A stretch of DNA of 64,000 nucleotides from an uncultured Alphaproteobacteria bacterium (GCA_963711925.1 CAVQFY010000007.1:349601-413600), one strand, 5' to 3'. Shown: positions 3,943 to 57,351, numbered from the stretch's first letter. Made by a program: numbers and translations. Notes: a model not told the origin generated them from the letters alone.

Positions 3943-3955
3943 TAATCGAATTCTA

Positions 3956-19153: not shown

Positions 19154-19230
19154 TGGCGCGCCCGAAAGGATTCGAACCTCTGACCCCCAGATTCGTAGTC
19201 TGGTGCTCTATCCAGCTGAGCTACGGGCGC
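19154..19230 (-). tRNA. tRNA-Arg (anticodon ACG), CCA encoded
   Basis: Minus strand gcgcccgtagctcagctggatagagc...ctACGaa...ggttcgaatcc...cgcgcca, 77 nt cloverleaf. Confidence 0.98.
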
Positions 19231-39501: not shown

Positions 39502-39520
39502 TCGTGAGAGGCGATGCCGA

Positions 39521-39701
39521 TTATCTCCCCCCTTGTGGGGGAGAAAGTGATTTCAGCATCTTAGCACTTGCTAAGTGCTAGAAATCACAAGAGAGGGGAT
39601 TGTTCTGGGGTCAAAAAATCCCCTCACTTGGATTTTCCAAGGATTTAGCAAAGAAGGCTAAATCCAGGAAAATCCTTTCTCTCCCACAAGGGGAGAGATA
39701 A
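39521..39701. repeat. Repeat family A copy 1 (181 bp REPIN/MITE-like)
   Basis: Inverted ends TTATCTCCCCCCTTGTGGGGGAGAAAG...CTTTCTCTCCCACAAGGGGAGAGATAA with three internal hairpins; matches three other copies. Confidence 0.95.
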
Positions 39702-39744
39702 GAGCGGATCCGTCCGCGTGTAATGTGCGACGTTCAACTTACAA

Positions 39745-40788
39745 TTACAGCGCAGGCAATCGTCCGATACCGATAAAGCCAACCGACATTTTGCCGTTCT
39801 TCACCGTAATGGGAAGTGTCGGCGCGCCACTCGCGTCTTTCGGAACGAACGCCATCGCTTGAACAACGGTCGAAATCGTATTGCCTGCTTCAGGGAAGAT
39901 GCCCTGCATGACTTTGGCGACACCTTCCGGATTGCGCATCGTCACCTTGAAATCGCCGCTGATGCGTCCGTCATCGGCGACGGAAAACGGACCGGAAATC
40001 GCAATCCCGCTGCCATCCTCGAAGGACAGTTCGACTTTGCGCAGCGTTCCCGTCTGGCCGCGCAGAACCGACAGGTCACGCTCGGGTTTTGCCAGAAGCG
40101 CGAAACCATTGGCAAGCTGGACATCGGCAGCTCCCGTCAACTCCGGCAATGGCCTGTCGAGGACGATATTGTCGGCGATCTTCAGCTTGTCGAAGGATAG
40201 TGCGATATCCATCTGCGGTTGAGCGGTGTTGAACTCAAGTTTCCCGGTCTGCATGACGGCGAGGGGAACAGGATTGCTCACATTCCCGCGCTCGGTGACC
40301 ATGACATTGCTGCCTTCGATCGACAGTTGTTTCGGAAGCGGTTTGTCGAGCCGGACGCTCGTGGCGAGATTTTCCCATTTCACGTCGAGAGGCGGAGCAC
40401 CGGGCACGTCGACCGCGGCAGGGCCTTCGACGCTGCTAACGATTTTTAGCGGGTCGTAGACTTGTGCCGCGGAACGAAAGCTGCCGGCGGTGATGGATAT
40501 GTTCTTGGCCTGGTCGACCCAGCCGACTTTCGAGCAGTCGAGACCAACGCGCAAAGGATAGCCGCTCGCCCTGGCGTTTTCGCAGGTGGCATCGATACCC
40601 TGCTGCTTGAACGCTGCAATGTTCGTTGCGACCCGGCTCTCGAGCTGATTGGCCAGATAGTACCAGCCGCCGGTGTAGATCACGCCGGCAAGGATAATCA
40701 GTGCGCCGATGATGATCGGAAGTCTCGAAGGCTTGCGGCTCTTTTCGGCAGTGCTTGACGGCATGGGGCGGGTCTCGCTATCGGTCAC
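39745..40788 (-). CDS. DUF2125 domain protein
   Basis: N-terminal TM then GYPLRVGLDC, SFRSAAQVYDP; usual neighbour of chaC/tyrA. Confidence 0.8.
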   Translation of the reverse strand: MTDSETRPMPSSTAEKSRKPSRLPIIIGALIILAGVIYTGGWYYLANQLESRVATNIAAFKQQGIDATCENARASGYPLRVGLDCSKVGWVDQAKNISITAGSFRSAAQVYDPLKIVSSVEGPAAVDVPGAPPLDVKWENLATSVRLDKPLPKQLSIEGSNVMVTERGNVSNPVPLAVMQTGKLEFNTAQPQMDIALSFDKLKIADNIVLDRPLPELTGAADVQLANGFALLAKPERDLSVLRGQTGTLRKVELSFEDGSGIAISGPFSVADDGRISGDFKVTMRNPEGVAKVMQGIFPEAGNTISTVVQAMAFVPKDASGAPTLPITVKNGKMSVGFIGIGRLPAL

Positions 40789-40826
40789 GGGAAGATATTC
40801 AATGAGATCGAGCTATCAGGACGGAT

Positions 40827-41345
40827 ATGGGCGATTTTTGGGTCTTTGGCTACGGCTCTCTGATGTGGAAGCCGGGCTTTGCACATGTGGAGACCTTGCA
40901 CGCCCGGCTGCACGGCTATCGAAGGGCGCTATGTGTCCGCTCCTATGTGCATCGCGGGACGCCGGAGCGGCCAGGGCTGGTGCTCGGCCTTGATCGCGGC
41001 GGATCCTGCCTCGGAATGGCGTTTCGCGTGCCTGGCGATCTCGAGGACGAGGTCGTCGCCTATCTGCGGGCGCGTGAACTGGTCACGCATGTCTATCTCG
41101 AACGACGGCTGGGCATACGGCTCGAAGACGGACGCAAGGTCGAGGCGCTGACCTATATCGTCGACCGCAACCATGTTCAGTATGCGGGCAGGCTTTCCGT
41201 GAGCGAAGCTGCGACGGCTGTGCGCGGCTCAGTGGGTCAATCGGGCCGCAATGAAGACTATGTGCACAGTACGCTCGAGCACATGCACAAGATGAAGATC
41301 CGCGACCACTGGATGGAGGCGGTCGTCGCCGCGGTTGATCGCTAG
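40827..41345 (+). CDS. Gamma-glutamylcyclotransferase (ChaC-like)
   Basis: WVFGYGSLMW, HRGTPERPGLVLGL, LRARE. Confidence 0.92.
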   Translation: MGDFWVFGYGSLMWKPGFAHVETLHARLHGYRRALCVRSYVHRGTPERPGLVLGLDRGGSCLGMAFRVPGDLEDEVVAYLRARELVTHVYLERRLGIRLEDGRKVEALTYIVDRNHVQYAGRLSVSEAATAVRGSVGQSGRNEDYVHSTLEHMHKMKIRDHWMEAVVAAVDR

Positions 41346-41348
41346 GGT

Positions 41349-41468
41349 AGTTCACGCCATGGCGGCCTGCAAACGGCGTTTTTCTGCACTCCGGTGCTCA
41401 CGTACCTCAAAGTACGCTGCGCTCCGGTGCTCGAAAACCACCGTTTTCGCCTCGCCCTGACGTGAATC
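41349..41468. repeat. Repeat family B copy 1 (120 bp, CIR/Bru-RS/RIME-like)
   Basis: TTCACG...CGTGAATC ends, internal direct repeat CTGCRCTCCGGTGCTC flanking CGTAC-N6-GTACG. Confidence 0.9.
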
Positions 41469-41485
41469 CAGACAGGCCCTGCAGC

Positions 41486-42166
41486 CTACAGGCCGGTCGC
41501 TGTATCGACAAAACGGGCGGCGTCATCGCTGGACCAGTCGGCCGGACCGTTCATAGCGGCAATCTGGCAGCCTTCCTTGTCGACAAGCATTGTGACCGGC
41601 AGACCGAAAGCGAGGTTCTTGCGCTTCAGATCGTTGAATACGCCCATCGATGGATCGCGATAGAGCTGCAGCGACTTGACGCCGATCTCGCTCAGGAACG
41701 CCTTCGGCTTCTCGTCGTCGCCCGTATCGATGTTGATGGTCACGACCTGGAAATTGTCGCCGCCCTTCTTCGTCTCCAGCGCATCGAGGGCCGGCATTTC
41801 CTCGCGGCATGGCACGCACCACGTTGCCCACAGATTGACGAGAAGCGTCTTGCCTTTGAAATCGCCGAGGCGGGCAGGCTTTCCATCGGGAGCGGTGAAA
41901 GTCAAAGCCGACATGGATTGAGGTGAATCCGCACCGCGCATGGCCGCAACGGCACCGACGGCGGCCCCGTCTATCTTCTTGGCATCCGCGGTTTTCAAAG
42001 CGCATTGATCGGCGGACGGGTTTGTGCCGGCGACAATATTGCCAGAAGGCCGTTCCATCACGTATACCGCAACCGCACCGGCAAGAATGCCTGCGAGAGC
42101 TGCAGACAGGATGATCTTCCTGCTGTTGTCGCGTGGCGTTTTCTGCGTTTCGTTGCCGTCCGTCAT
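41486..42166 (-). CDS. tlpA: TlpA-family thiol:disulfide oxidoreductase
   Basis: [22 protein letters not shown]-terminal TM anchor. Confidence 0.9.
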
Positions 42167-42201
42167 TTTACTCTTCTCGCTTCTCACCCAAGGCGCTACC
42201 C

Positions 42202-43602
42202 ATGTCCGACAAGAAGAACAGCAATGAAATGTGGGGAGGCCGTTTTGCCTCGGGTCCCGCCGCGATCATGGAAGAAATCAACGCTTCCATCGGCTTCGAC
42301 CAGAAACTCTACGCCCAGGACATTCAGGGTTCGCTTGCCCATGCTGCCATGCTTGCGAAAACCGGCATAATAGCGGCGGACGATCACGACAAGATCGCAA
42401 AGGGCCTGAACACGATATTGTCAGAGATAGAGACGGGAAAATTCACGTTTTCGCGCAAGCTCGAAGACATCCACATGAATATCGAGTCGAGATTGGCCGA
42501 ACTGATCGGCGCACCGGCAGGCCGGTTGCATACGGCGCGCTCGCGCAATGATCAGGTTGCCGTCGATTTCCGCCTCTGGGTGAAGGCGGAATTCGAGAGA
42601 ACGGCGATTGCGCTGAAGAAGCTCATCGAAGCTTTTCTGAAGCGTGCCGAGGAACATGCATCGACCTTGATGCCAGGCTTCACGCATCTGCAGACGGCGC
42701 AGCCCGTCACCTTCGGTCACCACTGCATGGCCTATGTCGAGATGTTCGGCCGCGATTTGAGCCGGGTCCGGGACGCCACCCTCCGCATGGACTATTCGCC
42801 GCTGGGTGCTGCGGCGCTGGCCGGGACGGGTTTCCCGATAGACCGGCACATGACCGCAAAGGCGCTCGGCTTCCGCGAGCCGACCCGCAACTCGCTCGAC
42901 AGTGTTTCGGATCGCGACTATGCGCTGGAGTTCCTTTCGACCGCCGCGATCACCGCGACGCATCTGTCGCGCCTCGCCGAAGAGATCGTCATCTGGTCGA
43001 CGCCGCAGTTCGGGTTCGTGCGCCTGTCCGACAGTTTCTCCACCGGCTCGTCGATCATGCCGCAGAAGAAGAACCCCGATGCTGCCGAACTGGTGCGCGC
43101 CAAGACCGGGCGCATCACCGGCTCGCTGGTCGGTCTCCTGACGGTGATGAAAGGTCTGCCGCTGACCTATTCCAAGGACATGCAGGAAGACAAGGAAGCC
43201 GTCTTCGATGCAGCCGAGACGCTGGAACTATGCATTGCCGCGATGACCGGCATGGTCGGTGATATGACCATCAACAGCGCCGCAATGAAAAAAGCGGCCG
43301 GTTCCGGTTATTCCACTGCGACCGATCTTGCCGACTGGCTTGTACGCGAACTCGGCCTGCCTTTCCGCGAGGCGCATCACGTGACCGGACGCGCAGTGGC
43401 TTTGGCCGAAGAGAGGAAAGCCGAGCTTGGCAAGCTGTCGCTTGAGGATCTGCAGGCGATACATCCCGGCATCACCGATGCGGTGTTCGGTTATCTGACC
43501 GTCGACAAATCGGTGCGCAGCCGCAAATCCTATGGCGGTACGGCGCCGGGCGAGGTTCGCCGCCAGATCAAATTCTGGCAAAAGCGCATCGCAAAACTCT
43601 AA
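42202..43602 (+). CDS. argH: Argininosuccinate lyase
   Basis: [37 protein letters not shown]. Confidence 0.97.
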
Positions 43603-43681
43603 AACATTATTGGCTGGCGATGGGGGTGCAAAGCGCGCCTTCATACGCTAGACAGAGTAAACGCCATTCGGGATCAAACTT

Positions 43682-43867
43682 ATGACGAGCCGTTCTTTTT
43701 TGACGACAATACTGATGTCGATTGCAATTTTAAGCGTTGTTTCGGCTTGTGGCCGAAAGGGCGATCCTGAACTGCCGCCGGCTTCCGTTACGACGATGCC
43801 CGGCGAGCCGAAGACAGAAAAACCACCGGTTCAGGACAAGCGTTTCATCCTTGACCCGTTGATCTAG
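43682..43867 (+). CDS. Small lipoprotein (LptM/YifL-like)
   Basis: Lipobox VSAC-GRKGDPELPP; typical position upstream of lysA. Confidence 0.8.
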   Translation: MTSRSFLTTILMSIAILSVVSACGRKGDPELPPASVTTMPGEPKTEKPPVQDKRFILDPLI

Positions 43868-43875
43868 GCACGTAC

Positions 43876-45141
43876 GTGAACCATTTCGACTATAAAGACG
43901 GCGTTCTCCATGCCGAGGGCGTCAGCATTCCCGACATCGCCAAGGCGGTCGGAACGCCTTTCTATTGCTATTCCACCGCGACGATCGAGCGGCATTTCAA
44001 GGTCTTTTCGGCGGCATTCGCCGATATGGAGACGCTCGTCGCTTACGCGCTCAAGGCCAATTCCAATCAGGCCGTCCTGAAGACGCTGGCTCGCCTCGGT
44101 TCAGGCGCCGACGTGGTTTCCGAGGGCGAGATGCGTCGCGCTCTGGCTGCAGGCATCCCGGCCAACAAGATCGTTTTTTCCGGCGTCGGCAAGAAGCCCG
44201 GCGAAATGGATTATGCGCTGGCCGCAGGAATCCATTGTTTCAACGTCGAATCCGAGCCGGAGCTTGAAATATTGTCCGGGCGCGCGGTTGCTGCCGGCAA
44301 GATTGCGCCGGTATCGCTACGCATAAACCCGGATGTGGACGCCAAGACCCACAAAAAGATTTCCACGGGCAAATCCGAGAACAAGTTCGGCATTCCGCTT
44401 GCGAAGGCCAGCACGATCTATGCGCATGCCGCCAAGCTGCCCGGCCTCAAGGTCACCGGCATCGACATGCATATCGGCAGCCAGATCACCGATCTCGAGC
44501 CGTTCGACAATGCCTTCAGGCTGCTGGCCGAACTGGTGGCGCAGTTGCAGGCAGACGGCCACGATATCAAGCATGTCGATCTCGGCGGCGGCTTGGGCAT
44601 TCCCTATCATTTCGACAATAATCCACCGCCGCTGCCCGATGCCTATGCGCAAATCGTGCAAAAGCATATCAAGCCCCTGGGTCTGAAGACCATTTTCGAA
44701 CCGGGCCGTCTCATCGTCGGCAATGCCGGTATATTGGTCAGCGAGGTGATTTACCTCAAGGAAGGCGATGCGCGGAATTTCATCATCGTCGATGCGGCCA
44801 TGAACGATCTCATCCGTCCGACGCTTTACGACGCCTTTCATATCATCCGTCCGGTCAAGGAGCCTGCGGCCAACGATCCGCGTATTCGCGGCGATGTCGT
44901 CGGTCCGGTTTGCGAAACCGGCGATTATCTTGGCCTCGATCGCGACCTGCCGCGCCCGGCCCCGGGCGATCTCATCGCCATTGGAACGGCAGGCGCTTAC
45001 GGCGCAGTACAGGCCGGCACCTACAACACGCGTCTGCTCGTGCCAGAGGTTCTGGTCAATGGCGACCGGTTCCATGTGGTGCGCCCCAGAACGACCTATG
45101 ACGAGCTGATCGGCTTGGATTCCATCCCTGAGTGGCTTTAG
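43876..45141 (+). CDS. lysA: Diaminopimelate decarboxylase
   Basis: YALKANSN, HIGSQI, DLGGGLG, EPGR, GPVCETGD, GAYG. Confidence 0.97.
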   Translation: MNHFDYKDGVLHAEGVSIPDIAKAVGTPFYCYSTATIERHFKVFSAAFADMETLVAYALKANSNQAVLKTLARLGSGADVVSEGEMRRALAAGIPANKIVFSGVGKKPGEMDYALAAGIHCFNVESEPELEILSGRAVAAGKIAPVSLRINPDVDAKTHKKISTGKSENKFGIPLAKASTIYAHAAKLPGLKVTGIDMHIGSQITDLEPFDNAFRLLAELVAQLQADGHDIKHVDLGGGLGIPYHFDNNPPPLPDAYAQIVQKHIKPLGLKTIFEPGRLIVGNAGILVSEVIYLKEGDARNFIIVDAAMNDLIRPTLYDAFHIIRPVKEPAANDPRIRGDVVGPVCETGDYLGLDRDLPRPAPGDLIAIGTAGAYGAVQAGTYNTRLLVPEVLVNGDRFHVVRPRTTYDELIGLDSIPEWL

Positions 45142-45155
45142 CAAGCGCTGTGCGC

Positions 45156-45333
45156 ATATCTCCCCCCTTGTGGGGGAGAAAGCGATTTCAGCATCTTAGC
45201 CCTCGCTAAGTGCTAGAAATCGCAAGAGAGGGGATTTGCTTCACTGATACTACCCCTCACTTGGATTTTCCAAGGATTTAGCATAGAGGCTAAACCCAGG
45301 AAAATCCTTTCTCTCCCACAAGGGGAGAGATAA
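45156..45333. repeat. Repeat family A copy 2 (178 bp)
   Basis: Same architecture as copy 1; central loop differs. Confidence 0.95.
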
Positions 45334-45486
45334 TCGGCATCAGGCCTCGGCGGAGAGCTCATGCTGCAGGGTCCACCTCTACACAAAACTATGATCGCAT
45401 TTTTACCCCAAGGCCTCGCCTTTGCCATGATGAATGGTATTGTTCTATGATGCCGGCACCGTCGATGCCGGCGAGATGGAGTGCGG

Positions 45487-48055
45487 ATGACCGATCAACA
45501 ACCCGACAAACGGGACGCGATCAGGTACAGGTTCGATATTTTCAAAAGTATCGATCGCCTCCGTTTGTCTACATGGTTGACCGTTGTGTTCGAACGCCTG
45601 TGGCCGCTTGTACTGCCGCTGCTGCTTTCCGTTGCCATTTTCCTGTGCCTGTCCTGGTTCGGTATCTTCCGGATAATTCCGGATGCATTGCGACTGGCAC
45701 TGCTCGGGCTTTTTGCTCTCTCGCTGCCCCTCTGCCTCTATCTCCTGCTGAGATTCCGTCTGCCCGATCACTCGGAAATCAGCCAGCGGCTGGAAAGCGT
45801 CAACACGCTCGATCACCAGCCGATCACCATCCAGTCGGAAGAACTCGTCAACAAGAGCATTGATCCGTTTGCTCAGGCGCTGTGGGACGAACATCGCAAG
45901 CGCATGGCCGAGCGCATCCAGAATTTGAAGAGCGGCCTGCCGCAAACCCGTATTCCGGAACGCGATCCCTGGGCGTTGCGCGGCATTGTCGGCCTGCTTC
46001 TCGTCGTCGCCTTTGCCTTTTCCGGCGGGCCGCTCGGCGGCCGCATCAACGATGCGTTCCGCAGTCATAGCAAGAGCGAAGCCATTCCGCCCCGTATCGA
46101 TGCCTGGGTAACGCCTCCGCGCTATACCGGACGCGCACCGCTCTTCCTGACAGCGGCAGCCAATGACGGAAGAAAAACAGTTCACCATTCCGCAGGACAG
46201 CACGCTTATCGTCCGCATTATCGGCGGCAGCGGATCGGAGAAGGTCACCCAGACGTCGATGGATGGGGAGGCAACCGATATTGCGGCGAAGGACCAAGGC
46301 AAGCCGGAAGACAATCCAACGACTGCCAAAGCCCGGCCGCGTAATTTCGAACTGCCGATCGGTGCCAACAGCACGGTCAGCCTGTCAGATGATGGCAACC
46401 CGCTTGCCGAATGGGCGTTTTCGGTAACGCCCGACCAGCCGCCTTCCGTCCGTTTCACCAAGGATCCTTCCAGCGCTGCCAACGGCACGATGGAGGTTTC
46501 CTACGAAATCAAGGATGATTACGGCGCATCGAGCGCGGTGGCGCAAATCGAGCAGGCATTGCCTGCCGACAAGGATGCGCGACCGCTCTTCAAGGCGCCA
46601 GACCTGCCTCTGGCGCTGCCGCGGCGCGGCGATCAGCCCAAGGAAACCACGACCACCAAGGATCTCACCGAGCATCCATGGGCTGGTTCCGAAATTCGTA
46701 TGACCCTGGTCGCGACCGATGATGCGAAACAGGAAGCCAGAAGCGAAACCAAGACGTTCGTCATGCCCGAACGCCCCTTCGCCAACCCGCTGGCCAAGGC
46801 TGTCGTGGAAGAGCGTCGCATCCTGGCGCTCAACGCCAATGCCAAGCCGCAAGTGCTCGATATGCTGGATGCGATCACCATCTGGCCGGAAGAGACTATC
46901 AAGAACGCGTCTCATTACCTCGCTTTGCGCAGCGTGCGCTCGCGGCTCAATCTTGCGCGCAGCGACGACCAGTTGCGCGACGTCGTCGCCTATATGTGGC
47001 AAGTCGCGCGTGGCATCGAGGACGGCGCTCTTTCGGACGCCGAGCGTCGCCTGCGTCAGGCGCAGGAAGCCTTGAAGCAAGCGATCGAACAGGGTGCAAG
47101 CCCGGAAGAAATCGAAAAGCGCATGAAAGAGCTGCGCAGCGCCATGAACGAGTATCTGCGCGAATTTGCCCAGAAAGCCCAGAAGAACCCGAATATGGCT
47201 CAAATGCCAAATCCCAACGCGATGGAACTGCGGCAGGAGGATATAGACCGCATGCTCGACCGCATCGAGGATCTGGCCAAGCAGGGTGCGAAGGACCAGG
47301 CGCAGCAACTGCTTTCCGAACTCGAAAACATGATGAACAATCTGCAGATGGGCCAGCAGCAGCAAAATCAGCAGGGCCAAGGTCAGATGCGACAGCAGAT
47401 GGACAAGCTGGGCGAATTGATGCGGCGCCAGCAGGAGATGATGAACCAGACCAACCGGCTTGAGCAACAGCGTCAGAACGGCATGCAGCAGGACCAGGGC
47501 CAGAGCCAGCAGGGTCAAAATGGCCAGGAGGGTCAGCAAGGCCAGATGTCCGAAGAGGATATCGCCAAGGCCCTGCGCGGCCTTCAGGAAGGCCAGGGCA
47601 AGCTGCAGTCGGATCTCGAGCAAATGATGAAGGATTTGAAGGGGCTCGGCATCAATCCCGGTGAAGGGTTCGGCGATGCCAACAAGTCCATGGGCCAGGC
47701 AGGAAAGGCGCTGGGCGATGCGGATGGCGGCCAGGCGGTTGACCGGCAGAGCAATGCGCTCGATGCCTTGCGCCGCGGCGGGCAGGACATGATGAAACAG
47801 ATGCAGCAGGCCATGGGTCAGGAAGGCCAGACTGGCGGACCCAATGGACAGCAGCAGCAAAATGGCAGGCTCGATCCGCTGGGACGCCAACGTTCCAGGG
47901 GAGATTTCTTCGACGACTCCAAGAATATCGTCCCCAAAGATCTGGATATTCAGCGGGCGCGCGAAATCCTGGACGAAATCCGCAAGCGCCTCGGCAATGC
48001 GCTGAGCCCGCAGATGGAAAAAGACTATCTGGAGAGATTGCTGAAGTTCGATTGA
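45487..48055 (+). CDS. TIGR02302 / DUF4175 family membrane protein, apparent +1 frameshift near 46169-46177
   Basis: FERLWP, RDPWALR, DAWVTPPRYTG then KDDYG, DLTEHPWAG, Gln-rich tail, DYLERLL. Confidence 0.85.
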
Positions 48056-48070
48056 GACCGCGGATGCCGA

Positions 48071-48252
48071 TTATCTCTCCCCTTGTGGGAGAGAAAGCGA
48101 TTTCAGCATCTTAGCCCTTGCTAAGTGCTAGAAATCGCAAGTGAGGGGATTTTACTTTGTGCGCTCCAAATCCCCTCTCTTGGCTTTTCTAAGGATTTAG
48201 CGAAGAGGCTAAATCCAAGAAAATCCTTTCTCCCCCACAAGGGGGGAGATAA
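48071..48252. repeat. Repeat family A copy 3 (182 bp)
   Basis: Same architecture; between convergent TIGR02302 and hpt. Confidence 0.95.
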
Positions 48253-48272
48253 GAGCAGTTACCACCGGGCTT

Positions 48273-48809
48273 CTAATCCACCACCACACCCACATAGGGC
48301 AGTTGCCGGAACGAATGGCCCACGTCCATGCCGTATCCCACCACGAAATAATCCGGGCATTCGAAACCTTTGAAATCGGCTTCGATATCCGTCTTGCGCT
48401 TGACGCTCTTGTCGAGCAGCACGGCGATGGAAACGCTGCGTGCGCCGCGTTCCAGCATAAGTTCGCGGGTGAATTTCAGCGTTTTTCCGGATTCAAGAAT
48501 ATCGTCGATCAGAAGCACGTCGCGGCCATGCACATCGCTGTCGATATCGCGGAGCAACCGCACTTCGGTGCTTTCCGTGCCCTTGCCATAGCTCGATACC
48601 GTTATGAACTCCACGTCCGGTTCCGCTCCCGCATCATGCATGGCGCGGATGAGGTCTGCGGCGAAGATGAAAGATCCCTTGAGGATCGAGATCACCAGCA
48701 AGTTTTCGAAATTGCGGGCGACGATCGCCCTGGCAAGTTCGAGGTTCCGCTCCGCGATTGTCTCGGCGCTGAAAAGGACCTCGATAGTTTTTCCGCCGAC
48801 CTTTGGCAT
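48273..48809 (-). CDS. hpt: Hypoxanthine phosphoribosyltransferase
   Basis: ILKGSFIFAADL, VSSYG, LLIDDILESGKTL, FVVGYGMD. Confidence 0.96.
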   Translation of the reverse strand: MPKVGGKTIEVLFSAETIAERNLELARAIVARNFENLLVISILKGSFIFAADLIRAMHDAGAEPDVEFITVSSYGKGTESTEVRLLRDIDSDVHGRDVLLIDDILESGKTLKFTRELMLERGARSVSIAVLLDKSVKRKTDIEADFKGFECPDYFVVGYGMDVGHSFRQLPYVGVVVD

Positions 48810-48904
48810 GCAGTTCTTCCTGATTGAGAGCCCGTTTGGAAACTTTACTTTCCAAGGGTTCTGACCGATATGCAATTGCTATAGCCCGATCGCTGCCTGG
48901 AAAT

Positions 48905-49285: not shown

Positions 49286-49439
49286 CGTCTGCCCTCATGC
49301 AGACAATTTTTTCCGAATCATAGGACAGCCTATCCCACAAAAATTAATGTTTTGGCCGATGCCTGGCTGCGTTTGATGGGTGGCCAAATCCGTCCACACA
49401 AAATAGAACACGCATGGACACGAGATTGGAAAGTTACGC

Positions 49440-50099
49440 TTGATTCGCTTTGAGAATGTCGGTTTGCGATACGGAATGGGCCCGGAGGTTCTGCGTGATG
49501 TCAGCCTCCATATTTCACCGCGGTCGTTCCAGTTCCTGACCGGCCCGTCGGGTGCCGGAAAGACGTCGCTGCTGCGCCTGTTGTTCATGACGCTGAAGCC
49601 GACGCGCGGCCTGATAAACGTCTTTGGCAAGGATATCGCCACGATCTCGTCGAAGGAAATGCCGCTGCTGCGGCGCCGTATTGGCGTGGTTTTCCAGGAT
49701 TTCCGTCTGCTCGACCACATGACCACCTATCAGAATGTAGCACTGCCGCTGCGTGTGCGCGGCAAGGAGGAGGCGACCTATCGCGCCGAAGTCGAAGAGC
49801 TTCTCGACTGGGTTGGCCTCGGCGAGCGCATGCATGTGCTGCCGCCTGTCCTTTCCGGGGGCGAGAAGCAGCGCGCGGCAATCGCGCGGGCCTTGATCGA
49901 TCAACCTGAAATTCTGCTTGCCGATGAGCCGACCGGCAATGTCGATCCGCCGCTGGCGAGGCGCCTGCTTCGGCTTTTCGGCGAGCTGAACCGCTCGGGC
50001 ACGGCGGTTGTCATCGCGACGCATGATCTGACGCTGATGGACCAGATCAATGCGCGGCGCATGATCCTCGATCAGGGGAGGCTCGACATTTATGATTGA
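49440..50099 (+). CDS. ftsE: Cell division ATP-binding protein FtsE
   Basis: GPSGAGKTS, IGVVFQDFRLL, LSGGEKQR, ADEPTGNVD; TTG start. Confidence 0.93.
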   Translation: MIRFENVGLRYGMGPEVLRDVSLHISPRSFQFLTGPSGAGKTSLLRLLFMTLKPTRGLINVFGKDIATISSKEMPLLRRRIGVVFQDFRLLDHMTTYQNVALPLRVRGKEEATYRAEVEELLDWVGLGERMHVLPPVLSGGEKQRAAIARALIDQPEILLADEPTGNVDPPLARRLLRLFGELNRSGTAVVIATHDLTLMDQINARRMILDQGRLDIYD

Positions 50100-51091
50100 T
50101 GCCGCCCGTATCAAGTATCTGGCGCTCGACCTGTTTGGCCGTGCCATGGAGCGCTTTCAGGCCAAGAGCGGGCAGGCGCCAATCGTGCCCGCCGGCAATG
50201 TCGTTGGCCACGCCCTGATGATCGTCATCGCCATCATGACTTTCCTCGCCTGCCTTACCATTGGTGCAGTCAGTCTCGTCCAGTCGACGGCCGCGACGTG
50301 GCAGAGCCAGATTTCGACCGAGGCCACAATCCAGATACGTCCGGTCGAGGGCCAGGACATGGAGGCGCTGCTTAATCAGGCGAGCTCTATAGCGCAGGGT
50401 TTTGCCGGAGTGAAATCAACGCGCATCATCGACCGTGCCGCGACCGAGCGTCTGCTGGAACCGTGGCTTGGAAGCGGTCTCGATATTGACGAGCTGCCGG
50501 TGCCAAGGCTGGTGATCGTCACGCTCGACGAAGCTTCGCCGCCGGATTTCGCCGGCAATTCGCGCGGCGCTGGTCAAGGACGTTCCGGGCGCCAGTTTCG
50601 ACGATCATCGCAACTGGGTCGACCGGCTCGTTTCCATGGCGCGTTCGACGGTCCTGATCGGCATGGCGGTGCTCGCACTCGTCGTCGCAGCGACTGTGCT
50701 AACGGTTATTTTCGCGACGCGTGGCGCAATGGCCGGCAACGGACATATCATCGAGGTTCTGCATTTTATCGGTGCCGACCAGAATTTCGTTGCGCGTCAG
50801 TTCGAGCGGCATTTCTTCTGGACGGCGCTCAAGGGTGCCGCTTGCGGCGGGGCGCTTGCCATCATCATTTTCCTGTGTATCGGCTGGTGGTCGTCGCATA
50901 ATCTGGCGACGCCCGAGGCAGATCAGGCGACGGCGCTCTTCGGCAATTTTTCCATTGGGTCAGGTGGCTATACGGGCGTTGTTCTTATCATATTGGCGGT
51001 CAGCATCCTGACCATGATAACAACAAGAATGACGGTCATAGCGCATTTGAGACGGGTTGACGGTCGCAGCGGCGAAAGTCACGAAACCTGA
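50092..51091 (+). CDS. ftsX: Cell division permease FtsX, apparent +1 frameshift near 50551-50556
   Basis: Follows ftsE; EATIQIRP, LPVPRLV then IIEVLHFIGA; removing one base restores DFAAIRAALVKDVP. Confidence 0.85.
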
Positions 51092-51163
51092 TGCCATTTC
51101 ATTCATTTTAATATCCGGATTGTACAAAAGCTGAGCCCCGGCACTCTTTATTAGACAGAACAA

Positions 51164-51178
51164 GAACAAACCTCGAAC
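51164..51178. promoter_or_regulatory. Candidate alphaproteobacterial LexA (SOS) box
   Basis: GAAC-AAACCTC-GAAC (GAAC-N7-GAAC) 19 nt upstream of the YdcF-like start. Confidence 0.45.
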
Positions 51179-51197
51179 AAGGCATTTTTGATCCATC

Positions 51198-51896
51198 ATG
51201 GGCGGCGCAAACGACAGCAATCAACCAGGGACAGCCGCTCTAACCCGCGGCGGACGGCTGCTCGCGTTCATCCGCAGGCGCATCGTGCTGCCGCTGTTCA
51301 TCGTCTGCGTTCTCGGTCTCGTCCTGTTCATCGGCGGGTTCATTCTCTTTGCCGATCGCGTCACGACTCTGGAGGCACCGGACCTTACCCGGCCTGCCGA
51401 TGGGATCATCGTGTTGACCGGCGGTTATTCCCGGATCGAAGGGGCGCTCGATCTCCTCAAGAACAAGCGCGGCGAACGCCTGTTCATCAGCGGCGTGCAT
51501 CCAACGACCAATCGCAATGAATTGCAGCGTGTGACGGGCGGCGACGCCACCCTGTTCGAATGCTGCGTCGATATCGACCGCTCGGCGCTGGATACGGTCG
51601 GCAATGCGGCCGAGAGCGTCAAGTGGGCCCATTCGAACCAGTACAAGCGGGTGATCGTGGTCACCAACAACTACCATATCCCCCGCACGATGGTGGAACT
51701 CCGGCGCGTCTCGCAGGACATCGAATTCATCCCCTATCCGATTATCAACACCAACCTGCGCGACGGCGACTGGATTTCCCGCGGTCTGGTGGTCCGGGTG
51801 CTTCTGGTCGAATATATGAAATATCTTGGTGCTGAAGTTCGCTCGCATCTCCCCGATAGCCTGTTCGGGCTCAAGCTTGGCGCGAAGACTTTTTGA
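51198..51896 (+). CDS. YdcF/DUF218 family protein
   Basis: DGIIVLTGG..RI, LFISGVH, DTVGNA, VVTNNYHIPR. Confidence 0.88.
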   Translation: MGGANDSNQPGTAALTRGGRLLAFIRRRIVLPLFIVCVLGLVLFIGGFILFADRVTTLEAPDLTRPADGIIVLTGGYSRIEGALDLLKNKRGERLFISGVHPTTNRNELQRVTGGDATLFECCVDIDRSALDTVGNAAESVKWAHSNQYKRVIVVTNNYHIPRTMVELRRVSQDIEFIPYPIINTNLRDGDWISRGLVVRVLLVEYMKYLGAEVRSHLPDSLFGLKLGAKTF

Positions 51897-51963
51897 GAGT
51901 TCACGGCAAGGCTACATTGGTATACGAAGGCGCAGGCCAACCTTATCCCGAGTCCTGACCTAA

Positions 51964-52743
51964 ATGACGATCATTCGATCAATCGCCTTCAACACACTCT
52001 TCTATCTGAATTTGATCATCCGGATGATCATCTTCACGCCCTATTATTTCTTGAGCCCGCGCAAGCAGGCGTGGAGTGTTCCTAAAAACTGGGCGAAATC
52101 GAACCTGTGGCTGCAAAAGGTGATCATCGGCGCAGACGTCCACATCGATGGGCTGGAGAATATTCCGGACGGTCCGTACATCTGTGCGCCGAAGCACCAG
52201 TCCTTCTGGGACACCTATGCCTTCCTGCCGCACATCGCCGATCCGGTCTATATCCTCAAGCGGGAGCTGACCTGGATACCGTTGTTCGGCTGGTACATTC
52301 AGAAAATGAAAATGGTGCCGATCGATCGCGGCAAGCGTTCCGCGGCCATGAAAGTGGCGGTCAAGGGTGCGCGCGAAGCTGTCGCCGGAGGCCGGCAGCT
52401 GATGATTTATCCTGAGGGCACACGTACCGCGCCGGGTGCGCCGCCGCATTACAAATACGGCGTCGCGCATATCTATGGCGAACTCGGTGTGCCCGTCGTT
52501 CCGATTGCCCACAATGCCGGGCTCTATTGGCCGCGCCGCAAGTTCATGCGCTATCCCGGCGTCATCCGCTGCCGCATTCTGCCGCCGATCCAGCCGGGTC
52601 TCGACAATGACGCGTTTTTGAAGAAGCTCGAAGAGGTCACCGAAGCGGCTTGCGACGAGCTTCTGATCGAAGCAGCGAAGTCCGACAATCCGCCGCCCAT
52701 GCCGCCAACGGCGGTGAAGCGGCTGAAAGAACTCGGCGTCTAG
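51964..52743 (+). CDS. plsC: 1-acyl-sn-glycerol-3-phosphate acyltransferase
   Basis: KHQSFWD (HX4D), IYPEGTR, VPVVPIA. Confidence 0.9.
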   Translation: MTIIRSIAFNTLFYLNLIIRMIIFTPYYFLSPRKQAWSVPKNWAKSNLWLQKVIIGADVHIDGLENIPDGPYICAPKHQSFWDTYAFLPHIADPVYILKRELTWIPLFGWYIQKMKMVPIDRGKRSAAMKVAVKGAREAVAGGRQLMIYPEGTRTAPGAPPHYKYGVAHIYGELGVPVVPIAHNAGLYWPRRKFMRYPGVIRCRILPPIQPGLDNDAFLKKLEEVTEAACDELLIEAAKSDNPPPMPPTAVKRLKELGV

Positions 52744-52751
52744 GGCCCGTC

Positions 52752-52781
52752 GATGTTCACGCGCTGACGGCCTGCAAACGC
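52752..52781. repeat. Left-end fragment of repeat family B
   Basis: GTTCACGCGCTGACGGCCTGCAAACG matches first ~30 nt of both full copies. Confidence 0.7.
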
Positions 52782-52817
52782 CGCCGCTGAGCCTATTCCT
52801 GGGTTAACACCAGGCAT

Positions 52818-52850
52818 AAAAAAAGCTCCATCGTGAGATGGAGCTTCTTT
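52818..52850. terminator. Bidirectional intrinsic terminator between plsC and helicase
   Basis: A-run, aagctccatc-gtga-gatggagctt stem, then cttt. Confidence 0.8.
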
Positions 52851-52871
52851 AGATTATGCGAACGCGCTGAA

Positions 52872-54801
52872 TTACTCAGCTCCTCCCGCTGCGGCTTTCC
52901 GTGCCTTCTTGGCTTTGTACTTGTCAAAGCCATGCAGTTCGCCTGGTTTGCGTTCTTTTGGTGTTTTCTTCGGCTTTTCAGGCTTTTCTGTGGTCCAGCC
53001 TTCCGGCTTCGCCTTGGCTGGCTTGGCCGCCCAATCGGTCCTGGGCTTCTCATCATTGGAGCGCGGCTTGCGATTGTCGAATTCACGCTTCTCGCCGAAT
53101 TGCTTCTTCGGCTTGAAGTCGCCGCCCTCAGTGCGACGCGGCGAGGAAGGGCCTGCGCCTTCGCTGCGGGTGATGTTCACGCCCTTTTCGCCGGAACCGA
53201 ACTGCTTGATCCGCGCCATGAAGGCATCGGCCTTGCTGGCGGTGATTTCGAAGCGCGTCTCCGTCTCGAGGATCTTGATCGAGCCGACATCGGTCTTGGT
53301 GATATCGCCCGCCTTGCAGATCAGCGGCAGGAGCCAGCGCGGCTCGGCGCGCTGCTTGCGGCCAACGCTCAAGGAAAACCATGCGCCGCTTTCGAACTGT
53401 TCGAAACGATCCGAGCGCGACGTGCGCTCGCCGCGGCCCGGGCGATCCTCGAAGCTGCCTTTGCGGATCGGTTCGAGGACATGCGACGGCGTGTTGGAGA
53501 GTTCTTCCGGGGCAGGGCGCGCAGCCATCTGCTGGCGCAGATAGGCAGCGGCGATCTGTTCGGCAGAATGCAGGCCGAGCAATTCGGCTACATATACCGG
53601 CCTCTTCCTCGCTCACGACTTCCGTCAAGGAAGGATCGTTGAGAATGCGGTCATGGTTGCGCTTGTTGATGGCATCGGCATCCGGCGGTGGCACCATGGT
53701 CGTCGACAGCTTGGCGCCCTGCAACAGGCGCTCGGCGGTGCGGCGGCGCGATGCCGGCACGATCAATACGCAGATGCCCTTGCGCCCGGCGCGTCCGGTG
53801 CGGCCGCTGCGATGCAGAAGCGTCTCGGAATTGTTCGGCAGGTCGGCGTGGATAACGAGGTCGAGATTGGGCAGATCGATACCGCGCGCCGCAACATCGG
53901 TTGCAACGCAGACACGGGCACGGCCATCGCGCATCGCCTGCAGGGCGTTGGTGCGCTCGGCCTGGCTGAGTTCGCCCGAAAGGGAAACGACGGAAAAGCC
54001 GCGATTGGACAGGCGGCTGGTCAGGTGCTTCACCGCTTCGCGGGTCGAGCCGAAAATGATGGTGTTTTGCGCATCGTAGAAGAGCAGGGAATTGATGATG
54101 GCGTTTTCGCGCTCACGCGGCGCCACCGGCATGATGTGATATTCGATATCCGCATGCTGCTCGCGGTCGCTCGTGGCGGAAATGCGCAGGGCGTCTTTCT
54201 GGAACTGCTTGGCAAGCAAGGCGATGGGTTTTGGTACCGTCGCCGAGAACATCAGGGTGCGGCGGTCTTTGGGCGCTTCGCCGAGAATAAATTCGAGGTC
54301 TTCGCGGAAACCGAGATCGAGCATCTCGTCGGCTTCATCGAGGACGACTGCGCGCAGTTCCTTCATGTCGAGCGAACCGCGGGTGATATGGTCGCGCAAA
54401 CGGCCGGGTGTACCGACGACGATATGCGCGCCCTGTTGCAGCGCGCGGCGCTCCTTGGTCATGTCCATGCCGCCAACGCAGGAGGCAATGCGCGCGCCGG
54501 TCGGCTCGTAGAGCCATTCGAGTTCGCGCCGAACCTGCAGTGCCAGTTCGCGCGTCGGGGCGATGACCAGTGCGTAAGGTGCGCCAATGGATGTGAAGCG
54601 GTTTTCGCCTTCAAGCAAGGTCGGTGCGATGGCGATACCGAAGGCGACAGTCTTGCCGGATCCAGTCTGGGCGGAGACCAGAAGGTCGGCGCCCTCGGCT
54701 TCCGGAGCCAGAACAGCGGTCTGCACCGGCGTCAGGGTCTCGTAGCCACGGGCTGCCAATGCACCGGACAACGCCGGGGCGATAGAATCAAAAATAGTCA
54801 T
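52872..54801 (-). CDS. DEAD-box RNA helicase (DeaD/CsdA-like, DbpA domain), apparent +1 frameshift near 53596-53601
   Basis: AQTGSGKT, PTRELA, DEADE, SAT, HRSGRTGRAG; DbpA-type domain in next frame. Confidence 0.9.
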
Positions 54802-54951
54802 CAATGAACTTTCAGTGCTGGTTTGGGCGTGTGGTTGGCTCGGCGTCAATGGGAGCACGAGCGGCACGCATGTAGCTTTGTTGCGCTCTCGTAGAGCCTG
54901 CGACGCGTTCCGTCAATGCCAAGAAACGCATAGCTCCCATCCGCACTCCCG

Positions 54952-55428
54952 TCAGGAGGTGAAGCCCGCACGTTTCAAACGCACAATAGCGAGGTCGAGC
55001 GCGGAAAGAAAGCTCGAACGATCTTTCGATGAAAACGGCCGTGGACCGCCGGTGATCTGCCCGGCGGAGCGCAGTTCGTCCATGAGATTGCGCGTTGCGA
55101 GCGTGTTGCCGATGGAGGCTTCGGTAAAGGCTCGCCCGGTCGGCGAAATGGCGTCGGCCCCGGCTTTGACGCAACGGCTGGCGAGCGGGATGTCCGCCGT
55201 CACCACGACATCGCCGCGCGAGACACGCTCCGCGATCCAGTCGTCAGCTGCGTCGAAACCATCGCTGACGATGACACGCTCGATCATCGGATCGCGCGGA
55301 ATCGCCATCATCGAGTTGGAGACGACGAAGACCTTGACGCCATAACGCTCGGCAACGCGGTAAACTTCCGCCTTGACCGGGCAGGCATCGGCGTCGACAT
55401 AGATTGTGATCTTTTTCTGTTCAGTCAT
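54952..55428 (-). CDS. YaiI/YqxD (UPF0178) family protein
   Basis: [27 protein letters not shown]. Confidence 0.92.
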
Positions 55429-55430
55429 AT

Positions 55431-56054
55431 TTATCCAAAAATGTGCAGGGCCGCGAGACCGACCGAGGCGCCGAGCCCGATGGCGATGCCTGCGGCAAGC
55501 GCTGCCACCAAAAGGCCTGTTCCAAGCCAGACGCCATCCTGTTCGCCAAGGCCGATGGCCAAAAGGACAATGCTGAGCGCCGGCAGCTGATTGATGAGCG
55601 GGACCGGCAGGATGACAATCAGCGACATCAGCAGCGCGACGATGCTGACGACACGCTCGACGATCATTTGCGGAACGAACCAATAGCGCGGGCGTGCCAG
55701 CTTTTCAAAGCGAACGAGCATGGGCTCCAGCCTTGCAATGAACCTGCGATACGTTTCGACCTGCATGGATTTGCGCCGCATGAAGGCCGGAAACCACGGT
55801 TTTTCAAAGCCGAGCAGCATCTGGATCGAGAGCAGCACCAGCGGAATGCCGAAGATCGTGGAAGTGCCCGGAGGAAGCGGCACAAGATTGAGCGCCGCAA
55901 AAAGAATCATCAGCGCGCCGAAACTGCGTTCAGACAAGGCGTCAAGAATGTCGTCGAACGATATTCTTGACGCAGGATCCGCGCCGATCTCGACAAGTAC
56001 TTTGGACAAGCGCCGCGTATCCGGATCGTACGGCGTGCTATCGTCGCCGCTCAT
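55431..56054 (-). CDS. exoD: ExoD family membrane protein
   Basis: [30 protein letters not shown]. Confidence 0.88.
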
Positions 56055-56057
56055 CGA

Positions 56058-56177
56058 TATTCACGCTGTGACAACCTGCAAATGGCGTTTTTCTGCGCTC
56101 CGGTGCTCACGTACCTTAAAGTAGGCTGCACTCCGGTGCCCGAGAACCACCATTTTCGTCGCGTCATGGCATGAATC
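56058..56177. repeat. Repeat family B copy 2 (120 bp)
   Basis: Colinear with copy 1, same length, ends in CATGAATC. Confidence 0.9.
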
Positions 56178-56201
56178 TCAACAGTCATGCGTGGAGGACA
56201 T

Positions 56202-57083
56202 TCAGCGCGTCGGAACGGGATGTTCGCCGCGATAATCATAGAAGCCGCGGCCGGCCTTGCGTCCAAGCCAACCGGCCTCGACATATTTTACCAGGAGCGG
56301 GCAGGGGCGATATTTGGAATCCGCCAGGCCGTCATACAGTACCTGCATGATCGACAGGCAGGTATCGAGGCCGATGAAATCGGCCAGCTGCAACGGCCCC
56401 ATGGGGTGATTGGCGCCGAGTTTCATCGCGGTATCGATGGCATCGACCGAGCCGACGCCCTCATAGAGCACGTAAATCGCTTCGTTGATCATCGGCAAAA
56501 GGATGCGATTGACGATGAATGCCGGAAAATCCTCGGATACGGTAATGGTTTTGTCGAGGCTTGCGACAAATTCCCGGGCACTTTCGAATGTGACGTTCTC
56601 TGTTGCGATGCCGCGAATAAGCTCGACCAGATGCATCACCGGAACCGGATTCATGAAGTGAATGCCGATGAATTGTTCCGGGCGATCGGTGGTCGCAGCA
56701 AGGCGTGTGATCGATATCGATGAGGTATTGGTGGCGAGAATGGCTTCCGGATTGAGGTTTGGACAAAGCTGCGCGAAAATCTTGCGTTTTACGGTCTCAT
56801 CTTCCGTGGCTGCCTCAATAGCAAGATCGACACCGGAAAGGTCCTCCATCCGCAAGGCCGGACGGATACGCGACATTCCCTTGACGCGCTCCGCTTCCTC
56901 GAGCTTGCCGTGGGATACCTGGCGGGCCATGTTGCCGTTAACGGTGGCGAGCGCCTTTTCGATCTGCTCGGCCGACTGGTCATGGATCAAAACATCGTAT
57001 CCAGCCAAAGCGCAGACATGTGCAATACCGCTGCCCATCTGCCCTGCGCCAACAATGCCTACGGTCTTGATCGAGCCTGCCAT
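56202..57083 (-). CDS. hbd: 3-hydroxybutyryl-CoA dehydrogenase
   Basis: VGAGQMGSG, IEAATE, TNTSS, HFMNP, HPMGPL. Confidence 0.93.
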   Translation of the reverse strand: MAGSIKTVGIVGAGQMGSGIAHVCALAGYDVLIHDQSAEQIEKALATVNGNMARQVSHGKLEEAERVKGMSRIRPALRMEDLSGVDLAIEAATEDETVKRKIFAQLCPNLNPEAILATNTSSISITRLAATTDRPEQFIGIHFMNPVPVMHLVELIRGIATENVTFESAREFVASLDKTITVSEDFPAFIVNRILLPMINEAIYVLYEGVGSVDAIDTAMKLGANHPMGPLQLADFIGLDTCLSIMQVLYDGLADSKYRPCPLLVKYVEAGWLGRKAGRGFYDYRGEHPVPTR

Positions 57084-57125
57084 GTTTCCATCCGCTTTTT
57101 TTATGAATATATCACACAAACTAAA

Positions 57126-57156
57126 TGGCCGGGGTAGCGTTCGTCTACCCCGGCCA
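57126..57156 (-). terminator. Probable terminator of etfBA
   Basis: tggccggggtag-N7-ctaccccggcca perfect 12-bp stem followed by U-rich stretch on minus strand. Confidence 0.65.
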
Positions 57157-57170
57157 AGCAAAAATGCTGA

Positions 57171-57351
57171 TTATCTCCCCCCTTGTGGGGGAGAAAGCGA
57201 TTTCAGCATCTTAGCCCTTGCTAAGTGCTAGAAATCGCAAGAGAGGGGATAGTGGATGATGGCTTCAAATCCCCTCTCTTGGATTTTCTAAGGATTTAGC
57301 GAAGGGCTAAATCCAAAAAAATCCTTTCTCTCCCACAAAGGGGAGAGATAA
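57171..57351. repeat. Repeat family A copy 4 (181 bp)
   Basis: Same architecture; between etfA stop and the hairpin at 57126. Confidence 0.95.

Follow-up and report, generated by a model that had tools for sequence, protein, structure and literature searches.

What is the hairpin-rich repeat of about 180 bp, here termed family A, that occurs four times in a 64,000-nt stretch of DNA from an uncultured Alphaproteobacteria bacterium (GCA_963711925.1 CAVQFY010000007.1:349601-413600; the window), and how did it reach these positions? An earlier note, made from the sequence alone, had described the repeat as an element resembling a REPIN or a miniature inverted-repeat transposable element (MITE), served by an enzyme of its own elsewhere in the genome. 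The host assembly (G000) is a Phyllobacterium genome of 5.21 Mb in 11 contigs (56.7% G+C), in which the window corresponds to C7:349601-413600 (contigs are referred to by C-numbers, related genomes by G-numbers). We consider it probable that family A is the Phyllobacterium branch of a widespread group of DNA repeats in the Rhizobiaceae (GTDB sense) that are palindromic, non-autonomous and of "mosaic" build. The four copies are:

39521-39701, + strand: copy 1, 181 bp, 198 bits with the covariance model
45156-45333, + strand: copy 2, 178 bp, 192 bits with the covariance model
48071-48252, + strand: copy 3, 182 bp, 198 bits with the covariance model
57171-57351, + strand: copy 4, 181 bp, belonging to a - strand transcription unit

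All four were confirmed in place, co-oriented and between open reading frames (ORFs), starting at 39521, 45156, 48071 and 57171 with lengths of 178-182 bp, as the earlier note had described them. Copy 1 lies 19 nt past the stop codon of a + strand ORF (38566-39501) and 43 nt from the end of a convergent - strand ORF (39745-40788), copy 2 lies 14 nt past the stop codon of a lysA-like ORF (43876-45141), and copy 3 lies 15 nt past the stop codon of ORF 46163-48055 and 20 nt from a convergent - strand ORF (48273-48875). Copy 4 is situated between the stop codon of an etfA-like ORF (57371-58300, - strand) and an intrinsic terminator (57156-57126, - strand), and this order of stop codon, copy and terminator-like hairpin therefore places it inside a transcribed 3' untranslated region (UTR). 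The two repeat blocks of the window copies are 84-91% and 72-89% identical by an ungapped measure. The proposed copy count by whole-assembly BLASTN returned 21 loci in both orientations, with E-values that exclude chance as their source; the covariance model finds 15 of the 21 at full length and two more partial, hence about 17 full or near-full copies, and per-genome counts such as these are to be read with a large duplication in mind. Indeed, about 100 kb including the whole window (C7:343692-451826) is a syntenic duplicate of C10:741353-831181 at 85-90% identity. The C7 flanks are 92-98% identical to G011, G046 and G002, and those of C10, C5, C6 and C4 only 80-90%. By sequence comparison, the duplication suggests that two related strains were assembled together, or else that a very large segment was acquired.

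Each copy reads as an imperfect palindrome in which two inverted halves flank an unconstrained centre. From the outside in, a half consists of a weak GC-rich outer repeat, TTA, a C-rich terminal hairpin (consensus TCTCYCCC-CTTGT-GGGRGAGA), AAAG, a long A/U-rich hairpin (A in the left half, B in the right) and one half of a central stem (AAGAGAGGGGAT / ATCCCCTCTCTT). Terminal inverted repeats are present, formed by the ends TTATCTCYCCCC... / ...GGGGRGAGATAA and the weak outer GRYGCCGNTTA repeat. In copy 4, with the equivalents in copies 1-3 in brackets, the parts are as follows:

57174-57194, + strand: terminal hairpin T1, TCTCCCCC-CTTGT-GGGGGAGA (39524-39544, 45159-45179, 48074-48094, all +)
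57197-57238, + strand: hairpin A, GCGATTTCAGCATCTTAGC..GCTAAGTGCTAGAAATCGC (39547-39588, 45182-45223, 48097-48138, all +)
57239-57280, + strand: central stem, AAGAGAGGGGAT / ATCCCCTCTCTT around the variable centre (39589-39629, 45224-45262, 48139-48181, all +)
57251-57268, + strand: variable centre, AGTGGATGATGGCTTCAA (39601-39617, 45236-45250, 48151-48169, all +)
57281-57324, + strand: hairpin B, GGATTTTCTAAGGATTTAGC..GCTAAATCC..GAAAATCC (39630-39675, 45263-45307, 48182-48226, all +)
57327-57348, + strand: terminal hairpin T2, TCTCTCCC-ACAAA-GGGGAGAGA (39678-39698, 45310-45330, 48229-48249, all +)

The hairpins were present in all four window copies as first described, and so were the two compensatory details pointed out at that time, namely a paired GTG/CAC variant in copy 1 (GTGATTTC/GAAATCAC) and, in copy 3, terminal hairpin types that are swapped relative to copies 1, 2 and 4 (TCTCT..AGAGA versus TCTCC..GGAGA between the ends). 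The claim that substitutions preserve pairing holds well beyond the window: among 49 distinct Phyllobacterium copies, a model of five local hairpins leaves 95.4% of cells paired with 14 pairs changed on both sides, and none of 500 shuffles was as good. Covariation supports the five local hairpins, which are maintained by compensatory change. Pairing is nearly complete in hairpin A (99.2%; near-invariant in sequence within the genus and covarying across genera), in hairpin B (97.3%; double changes at seven pairs within the genus) and in T1 (96.4%), and reaches 85.7% in the central stem, where the G4/C4 core is invariant and the outer pairs are often mismatched. Across genera the sequence of hairpin B is heavily rewritten, with compensating changes that retain the structure. 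One copy from each of 25 genomes of other genera gave 94.7% of cells paired and 37 of 64 pairs with at least two Watson-Crick types, in an alignment that was fitted to the covariance model and so leans towards that structure.

Minimum free energy folding (dG ~-106 kcal/mol, z = -11 to -13, on both strands) instead pairs the two termini with each other, and this long-range pairing is contradicted by covariation, as 500 of 500 shuffles scored better. Pair 5 of T1 is C-G in 31 copies and U-A in 15, and pair 5 of T2 is U-A in 34 and C-G in 15, nearly always the opposite of T1 in the same copy, which disfavours end-to-end pairing. Palindromic DNA gives the same covariation signal as structured RNA. 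G-U exceptions to pairing are roughly as numerous as A-C exceptions, and the two strands obtain similar scores; nothing therefore marks one RNA strand, and a constraint at the DNA level fits. The description of family A as a non-coding, non-autonomous repeat family built from hairpins is supported.

The palindrome extends, weakly, into its flanks:

39513-39523, + strand: outer motif left of copy 1, GATGCCGATTA
48063-48073, + strand: outer motif left of copy 3, GATGCCGATTA
57163-57173, + strand: degenerate outer motif left of copy 4, AATGCTGATTA
45331-45341, + strand: reverse complement of the outer motif right of copy 2, TAATCGGCATC

The earlier note had reported GATGCCGA as a flanking sequence of three copies, and the sequence itself is there: copies 1 and 3 are preceded by GATGCCGATT and copy 4 by a degenerate AATGCTGATT, and copy 2 is followed by the reverse complement of GATGCCGATT. 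Its standing as a flanking site does not hold. Of 59 copies, 25 carry the motif GATGCCGATTA exactly or nearly so on one side and four carry it on both, a degenerate GRYGCCGNTTA is found on both sides overall, and other genera carry a GGGCGCC-type outer inverted repeat in the corresponding position; the motif is therefore the poorly conserved outermost part of the element and not a separate target. A free-standing target palindrome GATGCCGAT was rejected, as GCCGATTAATCGGC occurs nowhere in the genome.

Comparison of the four window sites and eight further sites across Phyllobacterium genomes revealed both filled and empty states in related species, as well as other occupants, with such variation at eight sites or more. 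Site 1, that of copy 1, is filled only here and in G011; distant species are empty, and a parDE-like cassette is found in eight relatives and in the C10 paralogue. This parD/parE-like toxin-antitoxin cassette of ~620-665 bp replaces copy 1 in the spacer orthologous to window 39502-39744 (C10:799165-799783 and G002, G046, G013, G020, G016, G009, G008 and G010), and in C10 it ends in GATGCCGATTA, the motif that also flanks copy 1. Site 2 is filled in four lineages (the window, the C10 paralogue, G010 and G023) with unrelated centres; both junctions are common to C10, G010 and G023, and the window copy shares only the right-hand one. The same site is empty in G012 and G017 and is occupied by a different repeat family in G011, G046, G002, G013, G009 and G008; the closest relatives carry another palindromic family there, of the CCCTCCCC-ACAAG-GGGGAGGG type. 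Site 3 is filled here and in G020 and empty in G016; in G008 a solo terminal hairpin with the outer motif at its flank stands in place of the full element of G000 and G020, and G011 has a different 600-bp insert after the same outer motif. Site 4 is filled only here and in G008, with an identical centre, and is empty in six closer relatives (G046, G006, G011, G002, G016 and the C10 paralogue). At a further site, site B, the element stands in place of a terminator hairpin that is present in the sister species. Furthermore, the centre TTTGCTTCACTGAACTA recurs in several species, at no fewer than five unrelated loci, near-identical centres are found at two loci of P. sp. 628, and copies in other genera adjoin different genes than in G000, so that positions are not conserved between genera. 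The site polymorphism and the identical centres at unrelated loci show that the element has been copied to new loci and lost. "Active or recent", as first proposed, holds only in part: most copies are of old date and have centres that were randomised from species to species, and a few pairs have one centre in common at separate loci.

Other repeats occupy the same spacers. A sister family has the same layout of TTA, terminal hairpin (CCCTCCCC-N5-GGGGAGGG), inner hairpin and a GGGGTGG/CCACCCC central stem, occurs as 6-8 copies plus solo hairpins, and is what the closest relatives carry at sites 2 and 3 in place of family A, suggesting that the two families have a mechanism or a niche in common. 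A second repeat family of ~120 nt (…CTGCAAAYGGCGTTTTTCTGCRCTCCGGTGCTCACGTACCT.AAAGTA.GCTGC.CTCCGGTGC.CGA.AACCACC…) lies at window 41351-41475 and 56060-56184, has ~20 further copies in the assembly and no Rfam match at gathering score, and is found in orthologous spacers of G011, G046 and G002 where G000 has family A. A small GC-rich hairpin, CCGAAGGCGGGCGAGACCCGYGGCTCGCC, is nested in the family A terminal hairpin, or replaces part of it, in several copies, and seems to be a further small element targeting that hairpin. Finally, a stretch of ~100 nt downstream of copy 2 (window 45368-45480; CTCTACACAAAACTATGATCGCATTTTTACCCCAAGGCCTCGCCTTTGCCATGATGAATGGTATTGTT…) is almost invariant across the genus beside a randomised spacer; it contains the region's best sigma-70-like site (45422-45451) and is probably the promoter or leader of the next membrane-protein gene.

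C3:302981-303128, C3:510897-511032, C3:536622-536792, C6:631176-631305, C6:204720-204843 and C10:790785, outside the window: sister family
C10:540370-540519, C10:642566-642618, C10:1179957-1180109 and site 2 of G023: CCGAAGGCGGGCGAGACCCGYGGCTCGCC hairpin

How, then, does family A spread and persist? On balance we favour a mobile palindromic repeat similar to MITEs, RIMEs or bacterial interspersed mosaic elements (BIMEs), with no mover found among the candidates searched, and passively transcribed in 3' regions. Copies are lost, or collapse to a solo terminal hairpin via recombination between the two ends, or are replaced by other repeat families. They accumulate where they are tolerated, just past the stop codons of genes that mostly converge or belong to an operon, and at least some are apparently transcribed as part of a 3' UTR. 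Family A would have moved as DNA through an enzyme acting in trans, which would recognise the terminal hairpins, perhaps in folded single-stranded form; this putative mover would not be of the Y1/RAYT type, and there is no hint of a protein of the IS630 or DUF559 kind. Filled alleles would also be exchanged between lineages via homologous recombination. The arms would be kept near the consensus by the copying of only intact ends, by short-patch gene conversion and by hairpin-templated correction, and the centre, being the tip of the whole palindrome, would be free to mutate and change length. In the transcript, the hairpins would probably act like those of repetitive extragenic palindromic (REP) units, BIMEs or ERIC, as 3' barriers or processing sites, a by-product and not the family's reason.

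Several observations weigh against this account. Neither a mobilising enzyme nor an autonomous parent was found, and no filled/empty comparison has a clean insertion junction or a target duplication, 25-100 nt of spacer being replaced instead. Because filled and empty alleles differ by whole-spacer replacement, no target duplication can be read, and the TA or TAA duplication considered earlier is not demonstrable. An insert that is purely selfish should decay where it lies, yet the arms keep level with the flanking coding DNA in identity or exceed it, so that selection in place for a host function has to be weighed seriously against gene conversion. Furthermore, the statistics on gene context depend on heuristic gene calls, and support for transcription of the copies is indirect and weak.

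The search for an enzyme bears most directly on a REPIN, a REP doublet mobilised in trans by RAYT, a Y1 HUH transposase. Family A shares with REPINs the inverted doublet of hairpin-bearing halves, a variable spacer of 13-25 nt, an intergenic location and the lack of a target duplication. However, the Y1_Tnp/RAYT domain (PF01797) had no match in G000 or in any of the 31 Phyllobacterium genomes, with 6 of 14 controls positive, and ~17 copies are few for a REPIN population. The REPIN/RAYT mechanism put forward in the earlier note is accordingly rejected as highly improbable, and family A, lacking the enzyme that defines REPINs, is not one of them.

A TA-duplicating MITE derived from an insertion sequence (IS) of the IS630/Tc1 type, with ends TA|TCTC...GAGA|TA, would account for the TA on both sides of the core in more than 90% of copies. 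This TA, however, belongs to the inverted repeat, and no single TA remains at the empty-site junctions compared. The phyletic pattern also fails to match: the IS630-type DDE_3 domain (PF13358) is absent from the copy-rich genomes G002, G004, G008, G012, G009, G020 and G013, and from G046, which carries copies at several sites (G046 stands outside the BLASTN survey of congeners), and is found in three genomes devoid of any real copy, G018, G017 and G014. As the ends of the IS630-type IS of G000 are also unrelated to those of family A, we regard mobilisation of this kind as very unlikely. A DUF559/Vsr-like partner was rejected in the same way, since its occurrence does not track copy number (PF04480 is absent from copy-rich G000, G013 and G006 and present in copy-free genomes). 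Nor did any of the nine repeated stretches of 1-3.2 kb in G000, several of them transposase-encoding, have ends like those of family A. The enzyme that had been expected elsewhere in the genome was therefore not found among these candidates, and because neither a target duplication nor a parent IS was found, the search for the latter in genomes other than G000 being less than exhaustive, we make no assignment to the classical MITEs. One copy is split into two fragments 2.25 kb apart:

C6:626358-626398 and C6:628650-628681, outside the window: the two fragments of the split family A remnant

Since this remnant brackets a ProC-like reductase gene and an EamA-type transporter gene, with no transposase, it was rejected as an autonomous parent; it is either an element disrupted by an insertion or a remnant of rearrangement.

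The centre and the arms evolve at very different rates. Centres are 13-25 nt long in Phyllobacterium and up to ~100 nt in other genera, and are unrelated between most copies but common to subfamilies at different loci. Between orthologous copies, arm identity is 0.89-1.00, as high as in the flanking coding DNA (0.79-0.98) or higher, whereas the centres fall to 0.17-0.68 once the flanks are below ~0.93; constraint therefore acts on the arms and spares the centre. Long palindromes are prone to mutation at their tip. That the centre differs between most copies inside conserved arms might also suggest a scaffold presenting it as a guide or spacer, as in a dispersed guide-RNA or "cargo slot". However, the same centre recurs at unrelated loci and in different species, and is thus inherited with the copy and not specific to a locus or target; second genome matches of the centres do not exceed the 12-15 nt expected by chance; centres vary in length from 13 to ~100 nt; and no associated protein gene was found. 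The recurring centres and the lack of second genome matches rule this reading out, and we give it next to no probability.

For the arms, two explanations remain, gene conversion with hairpin-templated correction or in-situ purifying selection. Arms-only identity saturates at ~0.90-0.95 among all copies, orthologous or not, and at the oldest site orthologues are no longer mutual nearest neighbours by their arms. In P. sp. 628, four copies share a CCGTTC arm variant around unrelated centres, and species-specific variants of this kind favour short-patch conversion between copies over independent selection. The competing account is a host-functional, structured module under purifying selection, for which mobility only seeds the copies. 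It could be a 3'-UTR RNA scaffold (a stabiliser, an RNase III/E processing site or an insulator of convergent genes) or a DNA site for a nucleoid or topology protein, a role of the latter kind having been proposed for BIMEs. In its favour, old orthologous arms are conserved as much as or more than neighbouring genes around a randomised centre, sequence conservation across genera extends to hairpin A, the central stem and the terminal hairpins, and the Watson-Crick variation across the 25 genera described above affects 37 of 64 pairs. The element at site B, which replaces a terminator hairpin of the sister species, points the same way. Yet the positions differ from genus to genus and are patchily occupied in sister species, some congeners are copy-free, and the balance of G-U and A-C exceptions favours no RNA strand.

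Gene context speaks to both accounts. By the heuristic gene calls, 58 copies divide into 28 convergent, 26 tandem and 4 divergent contexts (convergent enrichment p ~1e-4; divergent depletion p ~4e-4), with the nearest stop codon typically 4-36 nt from the copy. Copies are also clustered, with 18 pairs within 20 kb versus 1.04 expected. On a plasmid of P. zundukense, an annotated ABC-transporter gene row has a copy between its binding-protein gene and its ATPase gene. Placement just past stop codons, in a 3' UTR and in a gene row is what a host function would predict; however, in tandem contexts the copies take both orientations to the upstream gene (15 co-oriented, 7 opposed), and the hairpins do not score as intrinsic terminators. 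Indeed, only one of the eight terminal hairpins in the window was flagged as such, copy 4 lies upstream of a separate terminator-like site, and the intrinsic-terminator reading is not supported. Family copies occur in short RNA-library contigs, including some from a root metatranscriptome and from plant samples flagged only "RNA?", where DNA carry-over is possible. Taken together, we think a host-functional module improbable, though it deserves serious consideration beside the mobile repeat that we favour.

It is conceivable, if doubtful, that the arms are held in dozens of genera by purifying selection as the recognition module of an undescribed partner, which could be a hairpin-specific DNA enzyme unrelated to HUH/Y1 that makes no target duplication, or a host protein or RNase reading a 3'-end or chromosome-organising signal. 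More generally, there is a modest but appreciable chance that a dedicated partner protein or host function exists, and we keep it open because of the fixed five-hairpin order, the sequence conservation across genera and the slower change of the arms than of neighbouring genes. If a partner exists, family A would be a family-wide "orphan" system, comparable to REP-RAYT before RAYT was discovered.

How far does the family extend? In BLASTN searches of 24 congeners, 18 gave strong matches, four only marginal ones and two none. Because this survey covered no other genus of the same family, family A at first looked genus-specific. The covariance model, named R1, corrects that impression: 64 of 151 genomes, from 60 of 135 genera of the same GTDB family (Rhizobiaceae, GTDB sense), have full-length matches in several copies, with scores of up to 156 bits, so that the element is confined neither to this genome nor to Phyllobacterium. 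In cross-genus alignments, the terminal hairpins, hairpin A and the central stem are near-identical, and weaker relatives (35-110 bits) are found in ~27 genomes of other Rhizobiales families. Outside Phyllobacterium, two holders have names: "Rhizobium sp. CC-CFT758", on a plasmid, and "Chelativorans sp. M5D2P16", which gave no more than partial matches. A BLASTN search with three variants over 72,556 PLSDB plasmids, which presumably include the S. meliloti megaplasmids, gave only three matches (two Phyllobacterium plasmids and one "Rhizobium sp." plasmid) and none on a Sinorhizobium or Agrobacterium plasmid.

The earlier note did not recognise family A as a named family, and the prior record agrees. 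No Rfam family matches it at gathering score (best sub-threshold match 28.5 bits versus a cut-off of 100), RefSeq annotation is blank at the element positions, and a search of the searchable literature for the element sequences found no paper with them, the RIME and Bru-RS consensus sequences falling outside that comparison. In the window, Rfam gathering-score matches are an ar14 alphaproteobacterial small RNA (sRNA; 64 bits; 3837-3947, - strand) and a tRNA (19157-19230, - strand), both unrelated to family A. Family A is thus apparently an undescribed, real member of a familiar class, the bacterial palindromic intergenic repeats.

Repeats like family A are easily mistaken for sRNA genes, terminators or regulatory sites in rhizobial annotation, a risk of mis-annotation that has been raised for S. 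meliloti (PMC2573895), and palindromic repeats of this kind mark intergenic turnover and recombination hot spots. Family A is unusually well defined, with a fixed five-hairpin order, near-identical sequence across genera and no candidate transposase. R1 could annotate it in hundreds of genomes, and the family offers a clean system for studying how transposase-less palindromic repeats spread, in which gene conversion and function can be tested against each other as causes of arm conservation.

The closest likenesses are found among rhizobial palindromic intergenic repeats, which include RIME1/RIME2 (Osteras, Stanley and Finan, 1995), the Sm-repeats and the "AB, C" palindromes of Sinorhizobium meliloti (cited in PMC2573895); rhizobial genomes hold dozens of repeat families that share sequence and secondary structure (PMC2573895). 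Like RIMEs and Sm-repeats, which belong to the same bacterial order, family A is intergenic, palindromic, modular and multi-copy, with no assigned function and no known transposase, and it is restricted to rhizobial relatives in the genomes surveyed. RIME1 reportedly measures ~108 bp with two palindromes, in contrast to the ~180 bp and five hairpins of family A, and it is on this description and the plasmid BLASTN, not on a published consensus, that family A would be set apart from RIME1/RIME2. In Brucella, of the same GTDB family, Bru-RS1 and Bru-RS2 (Halling and Bricker, 1994, cited in PMC10800456) are described as related palindromic intergenic repeats of 103-106 bp and rearrangement hot spots. 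They are about the size of one family A half, a likeness by description only.

Beyond the rhizobia, family A resembles the enterobacterial REP/BIME sequences in its hairpin units arranged in mosaics, located behind genes and within operons and co-transcribed, with solo units beside composite forms. REPs are known between malE and malF in enterobacteria, which the copy after the binding-protein gene of the ABC-transporter row recalls. REP units are 35-40 bp long and mobilised by RAYT, whereas family A has no RAYT and keeps a fixed order of five hairpins in place of free combinations. With the REPIN-RAYT systems of Pseudomonas and E. coli it has in common the inverted doublets, the variable spacer, the compensatory upkeep of hairpins and the lack of a target duplication; unlike them, it lacks a Y1 transposase genus-wide (31 genomes), has a low copy number, and its halves, at ~80 nt, contain two and a half hairpins. 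The Correia (CREE, Neisseria) and ERIC/IRU (enterobacteria) elements are imperfect palindromes of 100-180 bp with TA ends and no known transposase, found near gene ends, co-transcribed as long hairpins and variable between strains. Family A is similar in palindrome, size class, TA ends and gene-end placement, with no relation in sequence, and a TA duplication is documented for Correia, whereas none is demonstrated for family A. Compared with both, its ordered series of hairpins and its conservation across dozens of genera are unusual.

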